The position numbers are program-made. A DNA stretch of 63,269 nucleotides, the filler included, from Candidatus Sysuiplasma jiujiangense (GTDB lineage Archaea > Thermoplasmatota > Thermoplasmata > Sysuiplasmatales > Sysuiplasmataceae): the NCBI GenBank assembly GCA_019721075.1. It is 3 parts of 3 records of this genome, joined end to end, with 100 filler letters (N's around TTAATTAATTAA, not from the genome) between each part and the next. Parts side by side here need not be neighbours in the genome. Positions count along the whole stretch, not along the records: positions 1 to 23,145 come from JAHEAD010000021.1; positions 23,246 to 44,359 come from JAHEAD010000022.1; 1 more part is not named here. One strand, 5' to 3'. Shown piece by piece: positions 1 through 24,000 of the stretch (its first letter is position 1; every line of letters begins with the position of its first letter).

Positions 1-3000
1 TGGTCATAGGGTTCCCACCGGTCCGTCTTCAGCGCCGTCAATTCTTCCTTCGTCTCTTCTTTCACTACTATGGTCTTGTCCATCTAAAGCCACCTACAGA
101 GAGATACAGCAAGACTATACTTAAAGTTTTGTGTGCGCCTACAGATGGATGATGACTGTAAGAGGCGAAAAGATAAATGTCCTCGTCCCCGAGGGGATGC
201 TGGCCAAAATAAACGACATCCTGAAAAGGGACCAGTCATGGATCTCAATTCAGGAATTTATAAGACAGGCGGTCGCAGAGAAGATCGAGAGAATTGAAAA
301 GGAGCACGCGATAGGATGATGCCTAAAGACCCTTCATGGATTCGTCGAGTTTCTGGAGAGCCCTTTCTTCCATTGTCCGCGCTATCCGCTTCGCCTCTCG
401 CAGCGTTTCCGCGGCAAGAATCATCCGTGCCATTCTCAGTGTCGACTTTATGTATCCATTCAGGAACTCAATATCCAGTCTATCCATGGCTATTAGAAAA
501 ATCACGATTTCGATATTCTTTTCGCTTCAGATGAAAAATGAGCAAATGGATTAGAGTCCAATATCGCCGAAAGATGGGTATAAAAGGGCCAGCAGCCTCA
601 TTTGCCCTGGTGTTCTTCGTTCGCCTTCCGGAGGGTTATTGCCATGTTCACTGCGTCCTCGAGGCTCCGGTTTCCATGTTCCCTGGCAAGGTCTCTTGCC
701 TTGATGAGGTATTCCATCTTGATTTTCTCCCGCCCATTCGCGCCCTTCTCGAATGCCCTGTCTCCGTATTCCCGGCGGACGTACTCAGTAACCCGGCCTG
801 GATGCCTGATGGATCCCTGGATCCAGTACGGGTCATGACGGATTGAATTCTTCCTCGGTGTTACCGGGTAGTGTTCTCCTCCCTTTCTGGACCTGAAATC
901 TGCCATGGACAGATATTATGCACCCAATACATAAACATTCACCGGAATCGATGGTATTTTTATTCACGACCAATTTAGAAATCGATGGTTGAATTTTTCA
1001 TCTTCGACAGGTAAATAATCACGGACAATCATTCTGGGGGTGCCGCGGCGGACTGGGGCTGCGCAGGGGGTAAAACATCGACTCCATGGATCAATTAAGC
1101 CACCCCCCTCCCCGTCCCCGTTCTGTTTGAGGACAAATAAAAGCAGCTGCTTCGCCCTTTGCTTACGGTCCGGGATCTCCGCCCCGTGTCAATCAGATAT
1201 TTGTTTTAGTATATAAGGTAGGATGGAAAAAAGTTCCACATGTATGTACAAATGTTCCACTACTTTCTACCCTTCAGGTGAGGATCATACCTGTCTTCCT
1301 TAGGAGGTCCAGTAGACTTCATTCTTCCGATTAACTCGTTTAACTGATTAACTCCCCTTATCAGGGAATCAGTATTTTCCTTGGTTAGCAGAGAGTTAAT
1401 CGAATTTTTTGAATCTGGATTTCGATTAACTTCGTTTAACTCATAGTTAAACGAGTTAATTGAGTTAATCAAGTTAATGAAGTTAAACGAGTTAAACGCT
1501 AACTGTTTTTCCTCAACGGGGATCTTTATACCACACTGTTCAGGAGCTCCCGGGGATGCACATGATGCCCTCGTACTTGTGGCACCTGGGACACCGCGGA
1601 GGGTTGTTCGTCTTTGAGGTCCATACGTAACCACAGCTCGGGCACTGCGCGATCCATTTTGGCTGGATGTCCAGTATGGACCAGTACGCCTCGCGGGAGA
1701 ACATGTCGAACGTCGAAACACCATGGACCTTGTCGATGTACTGAGGGAGGTAATCCCTGCTGGTTATCGGCGTGTCCAGGATGTTGAAAAGACCGCCGTT
1801 CGTGAGCAGCGGGTAGCCGCGTTCCAGGTTGTTCAGGAGTCCCTGGCTCACAGGGGTCCTCCCGGGGATCTTCCTGCCTCCCCTCACATAGCCGAAGTAG
1901 ACAATCATGTTGATTATCTTGTAATAGAGGCTGGTATACTGGTGGACGCTGAATCTTGTGCTCACGTTGTTCTTCCGCAGAGTCCCGAAGATTTTCGCGA
2001 ACTGGTTCGTGATATGATACCATTCATCCTCCGGGCTCCCGGGAAAAAGCTCGTCGGCCTCATCTATGAACACAGTCACCCATTCGGAGGTCTTCCGGGC
2101 TTCGAGCGCATGGAAGAAAAGCGTCCACCATGCGGCCTGCTGGACAGGGGAAAGGCCGCATGTAATGATGACGTTCATGAACCTGGTATCGCACAGGCCG
2201 AGCGCATCCTCCGGGGATTCGCAGTTGCTCACGAGAATGTTCTGCAATGGTTTTGCTTCCTTATCTATCTGGACATGGTCGATGGTGACCTTCGCCCCCT
2301 GGACGATAAGGTTCACGGGCATGAACTTCTGGAACACAGACCAGGTATCGGAGGACTTTCCTTTCCATACCGTCAGGTCTCCTCTCCGGAAGGCATCCCT
2401 CGCCATCTTCTGGAGCAGCAGTGTCTTTCCCTGCCCCTTTGGACCTATCACCAGGAAGTCGGTGCCCCCATCGGGCGTATGCTCCATCATGGTCTCGTAG
2501 ATCATCTTCTCTCTTTTCATTCTGGCTCCGGCTCCTCATGCCTGAGGCCCTTCTTTGCCTCAGTCCTGAATTTCAAGCCAAGGTCGCCGTAGAGCATCGA
2601 GCACTGGACGGCCCAGCGGTTCATTATCTCGAACATCTGCATGTCGAACTCATTCGGGTCCGTACGGAGCAGAGGCAGGATCTCGCTGATCGCTTTCCGT
2701 ATTTTCATGAACTCCCTGCGGTAGCCCTCCGTCGCCGACTGGTAGAAATGTATGTGGAAGCGGTTCAACGCTGCGTACCATTTCTTCCGGCTTTCCGGCG
2801 TGATTTCCGGAGGCACTTCTATCGCCTCCTGGTACACCTGCTGGTCAAAGGTCACCGGCACCGGTTCTTCGTTCATTCAGATTCCTCCATTGTGTATTGA
2901 CGGGGGATGATGATGCGTTCGGTTGTCCTGTTGGCGCTTATCATTCTTATGTATTCGATATCATCCGGGAATGAAATCGGGAGTGGGATCTGCTCGTGCT

Positions 3001-21000: not shown

Positions 21001-24000
21001 GAGAGGCGATCTCGTCCTCCATTGCTTCAAAACAACTGCTGCACACCCCATATTTTGGGATATATGTGAAATCCTCAATTTCTATCCCAGCGACGAAACT
21101 GCCACAACTTGGACAGAAGCCCGCTTCCCTTGCATGCTTTTCACAGAAGGCATTCCCGCGTGGTTCCTCAGGATAAAAAAAATAATTGCCCTCCTCTCCG
21201 CATGTCACACACTTGATAACTTCACCATTTCGGCGCGTCATTTCGCTATTGCCTCCAAAATCCTGGAAGCCTCGTCCTTCGTGAGGTCGTCGAGGCCTTT
21301 TCCCGTGAGATTGATTGCTCTCGCAATCTCTTTCGATTCGCTGTCCTTCCTTGATAGGATCCTCTCAATGAACGCCCTCTGGTTCGGCGTTATCTTCTGC
21401 GGATCCTTCTTTGGATCTTTTATACCTTTTTCCTCGAGCCAGAAATGATACGGCTTGAGGGCCTTCTCAATTATGACGGATTGAACCGCAGACATCTCCT
21501 TCGGGAACTTGAGCTTGATGGAAAGAACCGTCTGGAGGGCGTAGTCCAGCCATTCGTCGAAGGGATCCTTTTTTTTCTGTTCTTCCATTTCAGCGGACCT
21601 CCCTGCATGCCTGGATCATGTTTGGCGGGACGTCGAACTGGCTCGTTCGGGTCTTTACACAGACATGGCCGTTGTCCAGGACTTCGCCCGGATACGTGAA
21701 CTGGCCTCCGAAAATGACTATCCGGACCTTCTTTCCGATGTAATCCTTCATTTCTTCCGGGTTCATTTCGGGATGCCTCCTGTCAGGATTGTCTTCGACC
21801 CATTGGGCCAGGTTTCGCCGCACAGGCACTCGTGGTCTCCGAGGTGATTCGCGGGACGCTTACAGAAGTGTTTATCGCCGGGAACTCCGAAAGCAGACCA
21901 GCATCGAGACTGGAAGTGCCTCATTGCAGCTGCCCCCATCTTTCCAGGTTCTTGTTCTCCCTAGACCAGGATTCCAGAATCATGTTCCTGTAGCAGATCG
22001 TATGGTAGCTGTGCATTTCAAATGCGACCGTATAGACGTTGACATATCCTCCCTGGTGGACGTCTATTGGCGACTTGCAGACCTCGCATTTCTTTGTCAT
22101 GGTCCTGCCCCCTCCCAGTCGTCTTCGTCGTCCTCGCCTGGCCAAATGCCGTCCTTTGTAGAGATATGGCAACAGGATGGGCATACTCTCTGGCCACACG
22201 TGTCGCAGTCCGGGCACCTGCATGTTCGGAACTCTCCATCAGTATCACAGGTATCGCACATCAGAACCTCACCTGCCTTACCATTCCCCGAGAACTGTCG
22301 GGCGTCCTGGGGAAGGTATATCTATCTATCTCATGGTGTGTTGGATTATTTCGTCTATGTTCCTTATAGCCATGACGGGTATATTCGCGTCCACAGGAAC
22401 AAACAAAGCGAGCCATCGAGTGTTGGGGCATCAGAATCCCAGCTCCTTTAGTATCTTACCGCATTGCTTGCACCTTACCACTGGAGGCGTATTGCCGTCT
22501 TCCACTAAATTGATTTCCTCCCTGTCATAATGCTTGCATTCCTCCTTGGTCTGTGCACGGACATAATTCAAGAGTCTTTCAAGGTCATAGTCGAAGCTAT
22601 TCCCGGGCCCGCCGATCTCCAATTTCTCACAGATTTGGTGTAGATCATACACCAGGATGGATCTCACCCGCTGATGCTCCATTGGCATCAGAATCCAGCC
22701 TCCTTGAACTGCTTCCCAAGGGATCTCATGTCATCGTCGTCAAGGACACAGAGGAGCTTGAATTCATTCGAGATTGTCCAGAGCCCTATATCCAGTTGCT
22801 TCTCCAGCTTTATCGGCATCAGAGGTCACCCTCCAGGCAGGATCCACATACTAAAAATCCGCAGATTGACCGCAGATCATCGATGGATCCACACCTTTCA
22901 CAGACCATCGGTCTCGGAAGGTCCTGGGATATTGATTCTACCTCAATGTCTATATCCTTCCGTGGGATCATGCTGTCGAACCTCCGAGCTTCGCGGTTTG
23001 GGGTTCATTTTTTTCTTTCCCGGCTTCGATGAGTCTCCGTATTACGTGGTCATAGGGTTCCCACCGGTCCGTCTTCAGCGCCGTCAATTCTTCCTTCGTC
23101 TCTTCTTTCACTACTATGGTCTTGTCCATCTAAAGCCACCTACAGNNNNNNNNNNNNNNNNNNNNNNNNNNNNNNNNNNNNNNNNNNNNTTAATTAATTA
23201 ANNNNNNNNNNNNNNNNNNNNNNNNNNNNNNNNNNNNNNNNNNNNGAGGGATGCGATAGACACTGTCTGGAACGAAACACGGCTGGGCGCACGCCTCCTG
23301 TTCAGGGAGCTGAGGAGGCGCGGATACCGCATACAGCACCACAAGCTCAACAGGTACCTGCTCGAAACGGGCAGGACGGTGCCCAATCCAAGGAAACAGA
23401 GGAAGCGCTCACGCTGCCGTTACGAACGTGAGCACTCGCTCTCCCTTGTTCATGGCGACTGGCACAGGACAGGCGAAAACCATCCATACGCAATAGTATG
23501 GATGGACGATGCATCCGGGATGATCCTTTCAGCAGGTGAATTCACGGAGGCTACAACCGAACATTCGATAGAGACGCTCCGTGAGGCGATGCTCGCTGCT
23601 TCCTGCTACAACTCGGCGATAAAGGAAGTGAACACAGACAGGGGTTCGCAGTTCTACAGCAACCATCCAGACAGTGCGTCAGTGTTCCAGCAGTTCCTGC
23701 TGGACAGCGGCATAAGGCACATACCGTCAAGACGGAACAATCCTCAGACAAACGGAAAGGTAGAACGATTCTGGCATGAGTACGACAGGCACAGATGGCG
23801 CTTCCTGTCAATGCATGAATTCATTGTGTGGTATAACAACAGGATGCACGGCGCACTGTGGACGGCCATCGCCGAGAGGCCGTCGGAGGCAATCGTCAGG
23901 AAGCTGCAGCCGGAGTCAATCCTGGGCATGTTCATGGAAGAGGTTGAATGCCGATGAGGGCTGAACAGAGAAATGGAAAGGCTTATAGCGGAAATGATTG

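Follow-up and report, generated by a model that had tools for sequence, protein, structure and literature searches.

We interpret contig C14, binned with Candidatus Sysuiplasma jiujiangense (genome G000), as a temperate dsDNA virus of Thermoplasmata in its free circular form, probably non-lytic and associated with the membrane. It would belong to an undescribed group of viruses, and we assign this reading a probability of about 0.75. The virus is known from its genome alone, and the basis in hand comprises a closed circle, a virion-type gene block, an attachment site, and integrated relatives. C14 occupies positions 1-23145 of the window (the whole stretch of 63,269 nucleotides), and its features are listed in Table 1.

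Table 1. Features of C14, in window coordinates.
Feature	Position	Strand	Remark
Terminal repeat (assembly overlap)	1..99	.	= 23047-23145
SSV VP2-like basic DNA-binding protein, 102 aa	598..906	-	PF25632, E 3.7e-17
AT-rich direct and inverted repeats	1316..1498	.	between ATPase and VP2
PAV1 ORF375-like P-loop ATPase	1540..2520	-	C-terminal zinc ribbon
Conserved block before ATPase	2517..5188	-	207 aa (signal + TM), 390 aa (TM), 182 aa, 119 aa
Membrane-anchored giant surface protein, 1595 aa	5214..10001	-	33 N-glycosylation sequons; weak PKD match
75-aa two-helix hydrophobic protein	9998..10225	-	capsid or minor virion candidate
Paralogous pair, 111 aa and about 94-97 aa	10225..10807	-	best coat/matrix candidates
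387-aa putative envelope protein	10813..11976	-	most conserved virion gene, 82% to C29 and C33
~105-bp promoter-hairpin element	12069..12177	-	TATA box within palindrome, then long hairpin
980-aa glycosylated adhesin candidate	12172..15114	-	variable cassette gene
Partial upstream copy of promoter element	15184..15215	-	32 nt, 88%
Short tyrosine recombinase, 221 aa	15434..16099	-	beside variable cassette; PF00589, E 6.3e-11
Chimeric ORF	17044..17940	-	membrane N-part + partial TBP-fold domain copy (65% aa)
Holliday junction resolvase-like nuclease	17937..18332	-	phrog_2002, E 3.2e-6
wHTH + TBP-fold + coiled-coil protein	18878..19861	-	candidate replication initiator; gene behind attP
Seven 14-bp direct repeats, ATTAATGCAACACC	19599..20023	-	candidate iterons/operators
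Integrase	19858..21078	-	catalytic R163, H253, R256, H279, Y288
attP core	20122..20137	+	= tRNA-Ala(GGC) 3' end
Small Cys-rich and RHH-like early genes	20963..23129	-	53-aa RHH-like ORF crosses circle junction

C14 is a real circle of 23,046 bp, as the first-pass annotation had proposed from its identical 99-base ends. The junction is spanned by the 53-aa ORF, which has a homologue at the same position in the provirus of genome G335 (score 74, against a maximum of 46 in 1000 shuffles). A chimeric assembly was rejected, contigs of X1 (which may be the source sample) being identical across most of 3200-22960. Related fragments previously reported on contigs C29, C33, C43, C51, C49, C50, C31, and C39 were all recovered, and further ones lie on C44, C25, and C36. 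The chimeric ORF is skipped by relatives (joint at 16821-17512), and the AT-rich repeats have no counterpart among them by blastn. Elsewhere, no relative was found in IMG/VR (scanned with the 387-aa protein, its alignment, the ATPase, the wHTH protein, and the promoter element), JGI metagenomes, or GTDB; the last scan also missed G335 and was therefore insensitive. Two proteins gave no usable match in the ESM Atlas. Pfam families were assigned to four of 38 scanned ORFs (the two integrases, VP2, and MarR), rather than to the 3 of 32 genes counted earlier. Neither these 38 ORFs against Pfam nor 30 against PHROGs yielded a head-tail or jelly-roll capsid family, and a head-tail virus was rejected given that the HK97 capsid, portal, and terminase of Caudoviricetes (e.g., NF3 of Thermoplasmata) were absent from both scans.

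Integration and the candidate replication module

Both tyrosine recombinases claimed for C14 are present. The integrase gene contains the attP core, although the first-pass annotation had seen no att-like match to chromosome contigs. This site falls at integrase codons 314-319, all five catalytic residues (R163-Y288) precede it, and the ORF continues for ~90 codons beyond it in repeat sequence. SSV-type integrases, as defined in PMC8371274, are split so that int(C) holds the catalytic domain. Such a split had been proposed for the G335 relative; however, the fragment taken as a 66% identical N-part matches the tail of the C14 protein (residues 339-406, the repeat region), and the G335 integrase is whole (28% identity to that of C14 over residues 42-301). 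With attP after Y288 and whole integrases in the proviruses of both G335 and G296, the SSV type was rejected, and the C14 enzyme, judged from these positions, appears not to be suicidal.

The collinear provirus in G335 held up, with matches to 11 of 39 queried ORFs. It carries a 13-bp repeat, at 108749 and 134042, equal to the 3' end of tRNA-Asp, and the G296 provirus has a 16-bp att repeat at tRNA-Ala(GGC), which a C14-type integrase remnant (58%) abuts exactly at the position of C14's attP. Intact integrases lie at provirus ends in both genomes, and the gene order int-att-repeats-wHTH is common to all three elements. The two proviruses, with their tRNA att repeats, indicate that C14 is a temperate virus. 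The short recombinase is 60% identical to its counterpart in G296 and 67% to that in C51.

The wHTH-TBP protein encoded behind attP is our candidate replication initiator, and integration would separate it from the integrase. Five of the 14-bp repeats precede its gene and two lie inside; G335 has an identical repeat and a protein of 70% identity, and G296 has another repeat and 34%. In the predicted model, residues 84-276 form a TBP fold (pLDDT 92) that matches TBPs with a Foldseek probability of 1.0 (target TM about 0.5) and 1mp9 with Z 9.5 (rmsd 4.7, 156 aligned). The family comprises 82 clusters at 50% identity. Near-invariant residues are R98 and H100 (56/58) and D243, S245, E250, and E252 (57/58), and candidate metal-binding residues conserved in the 58-sequence family are H100, E/H214, D243, E250, and E252 (positions by sequence only). 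No Tyr in the domain is invariant (no Tyr column exceeds 31 of 58, and C14 has Phe there). Since Rep_trans and Rep-Arvir need a conserved Tyr, the protein could be a transcription regulator, namely an autoregulated viral TBP mimic with the repeats as operators and replication left to host proteins. Besides the lack of this Tyr, its best structural matches (TBP and MarR) and the absence of a Rep_trans entry among the matches listed agree with such a role. We nevertheless consider it rather unlikely, as the near-invariant residues look catalytic and no other replication gene was detected in C14 by Pfam and PHROGs scans; repeats inside the gene, which we take to resemble lambda-O-type origins, also count against it. 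The candidate initiator had no plasmid match, and PF25227 (Rep-Arvir) was not among the 25 families listed.

In the proposed life cycle, the integrase, which would stay catalytically whole, places the genome at the tRNA-Ala(GGC) 3' end, leaving itself and the upstream early genes apart from the repeats and wHTH-TBP gene at the opposite provirus end. Excision would bring these regions together again, and binding of the 14-bp repeats by the wHTH-TBP protein would start replication.

Virion genes and particle shape

The PAV1-like ATPase was borne out by phrog_22963 (E 8.7e-26) and by PAV1 as the sole tblastn match in the phage set (E 3e-7); its family HMM finds PAV1 at E 2.9e-40, SSV1 (B251) at 0.015, and HRPV-1 at 0.37. 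It is likely a packaging or extrusion motor. An AAA+/P-loop ATPase is a spindle-virus signature, present in C14, and pleolipovirus modules also include an ATPase. PAV1 and TPV1 genes beside the ATPase did not align with the 390-, 182-, and 119-aa proteins of C14 (z<=1.4). The VP2-like protein was likewise upheld by its Pfam and SSV VP2 matches; it also matches Thermus phages IN93 and Tsatsa, which argues that a VP2 homologue is not diagnostic of spindle viruses or Fuselloviridae.

Among the coat candidates, the 75-aa protein has no PDB match and belongs to a poorly conserved family (22-30% identity beyond C29). Paralogy of the 111/97-aa pair has an hhalign probability of 98.4%, with 39 homologues, and the second member probably starts at a non-canonical codon. 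Both have an acidic N-terminus, a TM helix, and a long amphipathic helix, not the two hydrophobic helices previously ascribed to the 111-aa protein. Searches for a C14 capsid protein gave no significant match (PDB, PHROG, and HMMs against reference ORFs), and an hhalign capsid test failed all five of its own leave-one-out controls and had no power. The 387-aa protein is predicted to have a signal/anchor helix, a CBM-like beta-sandwich, and five C-terminal helices; its model matched nothing in BFVD at E<=0.001, and its top VIA hit (Z 8.2) lies close to the tool's stated background. Of the two giant surface proteins annotated earlier, the 980-aa one stands and the other grows from 1587 to 1595 aa when counted from the first TTG, with homologues in G335, C50, C39, C25, and C31. 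The promoter-hairpin element belongs to no Rfam family. In C29, C33, and C43 the variable cassette lies between direct repeats of this element, and in two relatives the swappable adhesin cassette carries tatA-tatC.

The first-pass description of a fusellovirus/PAV1-like spindle virus thus stands for the circular archaeal virus genome and the ATPase, and the spindle shape is a reasonable but unproven guess. Spindle-shaped and pleomorphic (or otherwise enveloped) virions each seem to us to fall just short of even odds, and another shape is improbable. A true spindle-shaped virus of the PAV1/fusellovirus kind, its hairpin capsid formed by the 111/97-aa pair or the 75-aa protein, is a tentative reading that draws on the PAV1-like ATPase, on an adjacent paralogous pair resembling VP1/VP3, and on two adhesins plus many TM genes, as described for Thermococcales spindle viruses. 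His1 ORF21 was also twice the top HMM match among 883 reference ORFs (E 0.15 and 0.025), but neither value reaches significance, and both probably reflect hydrophobic bias; the amphipathic second helix of the pair, the poor conservation of the 75-aa family, and the undiagnostic VP2 also tell against a spindle. A pleomorphic virus akin to pleolipoviruses and carrying a VP4-type fusogen seems improbable to us: a membrane-protein block with an ATPase at its end and an excision-linked int/rep layout (as in SNJ2) fit it, whereas HRPV-1 VP4, the sole query, finds no match among the C14 proteins (best E 0.27), HRPV-1 scores poorly with the ATPase HMM, and the 387-aa protein is modelled as a beta-sandwich without a BFVD counterpart. 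A plasmid that integrates, or a conjugative element, with the membrane block and ATPase as transfer apparatus, would accommodate the numerous TM genes, the P-loop ATPase, and the lack of a proven capsid protein. We consider this equally improbable; against it stand an ATPase that matches a viral family only, a VP2-like virion protein, large variable adhesins, and the absence of relaxase and VirB4/VirD4 families from the Pfam scan.

As C14 is read here, virion assembly would take place at the membrane, the building blocks being the small paralogous helical proteins and the 387-aa protein; the ATPase would power extrusion and the VP2-like protein would coat the DNA. The two large glycosylated proteins may bind host glycans, and relatives would exchange the 980-aa gene via the flanking promoter-hairpin repeat. 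Such a virus of acid-mine archaea probably buds from the membrane.

Host and significance

The assignment to a Thermoplasmata host stands, and that to Sysuiplasma is weakened by attP, which agrees over 16 nt with the tRNA-Ala(GGC) of another family. A Sysuiplasma host is doubtful because 3 of the 13 core bases do not agree with the tRNA-Ala of the bin's family; G000's own tRNA-Ala has 10 contiguous bases in common with attP. The ATPase family occurs in 8 of 401 class genomes, including 4 of 43 in family f18 and none of the 9 other genomes of the bin's family. Tetranucleotide usage fits G000 and G194/G348 equally well (0.84-0.86 for both), no DNA match to C14 15400-23046 was found in G194 or G348, and the 387-aa protein of one relative is filed under a Ca. 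Sysuiplasma bin. As noted before, CRISPR spacers provide no link: the 15-repeat array on C1, where a variant repeat led to two spacers being treated as one, gave just 13-nt or 15/16-nt chance matches. On balance, we lean slightly towards a host related to G194, G348, G335, and G296 (f18) and regard one in the bin's family as possible at best. The case shows that viral contigs of this bin may have a host other than the organism it represents.

According to a 2026 survey, its head-tailed NF3 is the first virus reported for Thermoplasmata, and a 2018 review states that mesophilic acidic sites had yielded no archaeal virus isolate, although spindle particles were seen there. A complete genome with a defined attP and two intact-looking proviruses offers targets for induction and isolation; the integrase, att, and candidate replicon could serve to build a genetic tool where few exist; and the wHTH-TBP family may be an unrecognised archaeal replication initiator, which can be tested. 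We think it unlikely that C14 is the founding member of a family of enveloped viruses of Thermoplasmata with a coat unlike those known from spindle viruses or pleolipoviruses, a new class of initiator (a Tyr-less Rep_trans-fold enzyme), and adhesin cassettes swapped between relatives through the promoter-hairpin repeat, one of them bringing its own Tat translocase. Were this true, the initiator would rely on a serine or water nucleophile or act by origin melting alone, its N-terminal wHTH would bind the iterons, and excision would switch it on by joining it to the integrase transcript.

Comparison with known viruses

PAV1 (Pyrococcus abyssi virus 1; proposed 'Osirisviridae') resembles C14 in its circular genome of similar size, homologous ATPase, TM-rich block, and two large surface proteins. 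However, beyond the ATPase no protein matches (next phmmer E 0.025), the PAV1 record lists no integrase where C14 has two tyrosine recombinases, and PAV1 Rep is a Rep-Arvir protein. Fuselloviridae (SSV1) have the VP2-like protein, a tRNA-targeting tyrosine integrase, and circular dsDNA in common with C14; they differ in their suicidal integrase and an only marginally related ATPase, and among their core genes (VP1/VP3, B251, B129, and others) VP2 is the only one for which the Pfam and PHROGs scans of C14 show a match to an SSV family. A short att at a tRNA 3' end is likewise used by the classical (pNOB8/SNJ2-type) archaeal integrases (PMC8371274), and their catalytic domain survives integration, as predicted for C14; unlike them, the C14 ORF reads ~90 codons beyond attP. 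SNJ2 and other betapleolipoviruses possess the VP4 fusogen, to which C14 has no sequence match (one query), but their integrase and rep genes adjoin in the circle alone, as the integrase and candidate rep do in C14. Their Rep-Arvir family (PMC13107129) also combines a TBP fold with a wHTH, central there and N-terminal in C14; and although Rep_trans and Rep-Arvir have an invariant catalytic Tyr that the C14 family lacks, their TBP-like catalytic fold is common to the predicted model of the C14 wHTH-TBP protein.

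A complete circular genome and its virion block

Contig C14, binned with Candidatus Sysuiplasma jiujiangense, is real and complete, and represents a group of temperate Thermoplasmata viruses that has not been described before. In a terminal self-comparison, bases 1–99 were identical to 23047–23145, as is usual where a circular molecule has been assembled, which gives a unit of 23,046 bp. A 53-aa RHH-like ORF spans the junction, and together these upheld the complete circular genome proposed by the first-pass annotation. A homologue of this ORF follows VP2, at the same position, in a provirus of G335, another genome of the class (score 74 versus a maximum of 46 in 1000 shuffles). 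Contigs of sequencing run X1, possibly the source sample, covered 3200–11914, 11997–19626 and 20776–22960 with zero differing letters at depth 9–14 (the comparison spans 3200–22960). Short X1 contigs of relatives at 11981–12177, 20686–20805 and near 22931 reached depths of 10,000–18,000 (C14, ~13), hinting at very abundant kin, with the caveat that read depth is no measure of copy number. The segment 10813–15114, whole or in part, was present in nine runs from three studies, all of mine drainage or tailings. Almost all C14 genes share one direction, and 4 of the 38 ORFs scanned passed the Pfam cut-off. Another contig of the bin, C41 (4,335 bp), has a 91-nt terminal repeat and is probably a circular element.

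Features of C14 and of related loci (C14 positions along the window; strand in parentheses)
Feature	Position	Remark
VP2-like gene	598–906 (−)	
AT-rich tandem and inverted repeats	1316–1498	Separate the ATPase gene from the VP2 gene; blastn against relatives negative
ATPase gene	1540–2520 (−)	
1,595-aa protein gene	5214–10001 (−)	
97-aa paralogue start	~10509–10512	No ATG/GTG/TTG at conserved start
387-aa protein gene	10813–11976 (−)	
Virion block	11976 to 598	387-aa protein, two small paralogues, 75-aa hairpin, 1,595-aa surface protein, 3–4 membrane/soluble proteins, ATPase, VP2-like gene
980-aa adhesin candidate	12172–15114 (−)	
Short recombinase	15434–16099 (−)	Immediately upstream of cassette
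Second, partial TBP-domain copy	17044–17940	Fused to membrane protein; absent in relatives of three runs
wHTH-TBP gene	18878–19861 (−)	
Integrase	19858–21078 (−)	
attP core	20122–20137	
G335 provirus repeats	108749 and 134042	13 bp
G296 provirus (L038)	C74 ~28394–41821	
tatA/tatC cassette, C29	L042:458–3220	
tatC, C33	388–1008	
Split 387-aa homologue, C25	L039:1061–2262	Two ORFs; distant relative
Resolvase/invertase, G335	127637–128305	
Resolvase/invertase, C31 and G372	L040:4644–5273 (C31); L031:7931–8560 (G372)	

The order of the virion block is conserved in G335, which has matches to 11 of the 39 C14 ORFs used as queries, and in fragments on five other contigs of the bin (C29, C33, C44, C25 and C31). 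The 387-aa protein, present in 2 of 401 class genomes (12 database matches, self included), yielded a model (pLDDT 67) resembling a carbohydrate-binding-module sandwich, near background (best Z 8.2, rmsd 3.6, 147 aligned). For the ATPase, PAV1 was the sole match among 50,697 phage records; against 883 ORFs of five reference viruses, its family profile gave E values of 2.9e-40 for PAV1, 0.015 for SSV1 and 0.37 for HRPV-1. The family occurs in 8 of the 401 genomes, with further PAV1-like ATPase elements in L031 (G372:C33), L036 (G176:C73) and L047 (G057:C13), from families f18 and f22; G372 also encodes a 298-aa protein with a VP2 domain. In G335, C31 and G372, the gene after the ATPase encodes a serine resolvase/invertase, which C14 lacks.

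The 13 records matching the VP2-like protein comprised 10 from Sulfolobales fuselloviruses and three from Thermus phages; because the latter match too, the protein leaves virion shape unfixed. The 111-aa and 97-aa proteins are paralogues (hhalign probability 98.4%) with 39 database matches. Their profile ranked ORF21 of His1, the capsid protein of that virus, first (E 0.025), which is no more than a hint of a capsid link; no capsid match appeared in PDB or PHROGs, and a separate hhalign comparison missed its own positive controls. The 97-aa gene has a ribosome-binding site ahead of this start, where C14 reads ATA and C29 reads ATT. Several regions like the 980- and 1,595-aa surface proteins occur elsewhere in the bin, on C5 (1268–19161) and on C20, which looks like a further mobile element.

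Integration site and candidate replication gene

In G335, the repeat delimiting the 25.3-kb provirus is a tRNA-Asp 3' end, and the integrase is whole; the 66% piece earlier read as a split-off N-part matches C14 residues 339–406, which are made of DNA repeats. The C14 integrase carries a tRNA-like motif after its catalytic Tyr288. A search pattern derived from this motif hit 6 of 401 genomes, three times at tRNA-Ala(GGC) 3' ends (16 identical nt in both G194 and G348, 14 in G006). In G296, a 13.4-kb provirus bounded by 16-bp repeats lies inside tRNA-Ala(GGC), where a residual C14-type integrase end (58%) adjoins the repeat at the position equivalent to the attP core, which confirms the att site by position; the first-pass annotation had seen no att-like match to chromosome contigs. 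Common to this provirus and C14 are the integrase, wHTH-TBP, resolvase, short recombinase and ATPase genes, but not the virion block; beyond attR are the remains of an older provirus. In SSV-type integrases, the split leaves the catalytic domain in int(C) (PMC8371274), whereas in C14 attP lies behind Tyr288 and that domain stays undivided; the integrase is therefore classical, not SSV-type as first annotated.

In all three elements (C14, G335 and G296), att lies between the integrase and the wHTH-TBP gene, a candidate replication initiator on its predicted fold. Its product had 82 matches at 50% clustering; with 25 omitted, mostly fragments and wHTH-only matches, the model from 58 sequences, C14 included (pLDDT 92), had a TBP-fold domain together with a wHTH and a long helix. 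Among viral proteins, the top match came from an uncultured archaeal virus (E 1.2e-10). Rep_trans and Rep-Arvir initiators have an essential Tyr on the same fold (PMC13107129), whereas this alignment holds near-invariant R98, H100, D243, S245, E250 and E252 and no near-invariant Tyr. Seven copies of a 14-bp repeat stand before and inside the gene (0.007 expected), as in G335; G296, whose protein is 34% identical, has four copies of a different motif.

A variable cassette with Tat genes

A 105-bp element, with a TATA box within a palindrome followed by a hairpin (one compensatory pair across four copies; no Rfam family found), stands before the 387-aa gene. On C29, C33 and C43 it flanks a variable surface-protein block as direct repeats (88–92% identical), and 32 nt of the upstream copy are left in C14, which suggests cassette exchange via homologous or site-specific recombination. 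The C29 cassette encodes tatA (PF02416, E 6.6e-11), tatC (PF00902, E 7.6e-42) and, in addition, an ORF of 591 aa that bears a twin-arginine signal, and C33 also has tatC; by annotation, these relatives carry a predicted virus-borne Tat translocase within the repeat-flanked cassette. The host copy of tatC is on C4. No description of a viral tatC was found among the literature matches listed.

Host range and relation to known viruses

At class level, a host in Thermoplasmata is well supported. Away from the bin point its family's 11 tRNA-Ala matches (9 of 10 genomes), all differing from attP at 3 of 13 core bases, the f18 membership of G335, G296, G194 and G348, and a wHTH relative named from Acidiplasma aeolicum. 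However, the last 10 bases of the bin's own site are identical to attP, its tetranucleotide use is not separable from that of G194/G348 as a match to C14, and a relative's protein is deposited under Ca. Sysuiplasma jiujiangense; DNA related to C14 15400–23046 was not found in G194 or G348, which counts against an f18 host. As noted previously, no CRISPR spacer in the bin matches, so the array gives no host link. In run X8, one 160-nt contig matches from 20123 onwards, while the 17 letters ahead of that point differ from C14, a pattern that would fit an attL junction.

Spindle-virus proviruses reportedly featured in an earlier survey of Euryarchaeota, and there are also the Richmond Mine AMDV contigs. 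In the openly available literature (including PMC13573593, PMC12934983, PMC10919331, bioRxiv 2025.02.15.638363, PMC6336744 and PMC12451623), we found no description of the C14 group or the wHTH-TBP family, though the 30 Thermoplasmatota/Nanobdellota proviruses in PMC13573593 could include C14-type elements. Of the fusellovirus/PAV1-like spindle-shaped virus first proposed, the PAV1-like part stood in the ATPase; fusellovirus identity was rejected, and the spindle is one of the possible virion shapes. In SNJ2, excision re-forms a replication operon (abstract of the SNJ2 study); with att likewise separating integrase from candidate replication gene, excision of C14 might restore its operon by analogy. 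In its ATPase and its membrane-rich gene block, C14 resembles the non-lytic viruses of the PAV1 type and probably works as they do.
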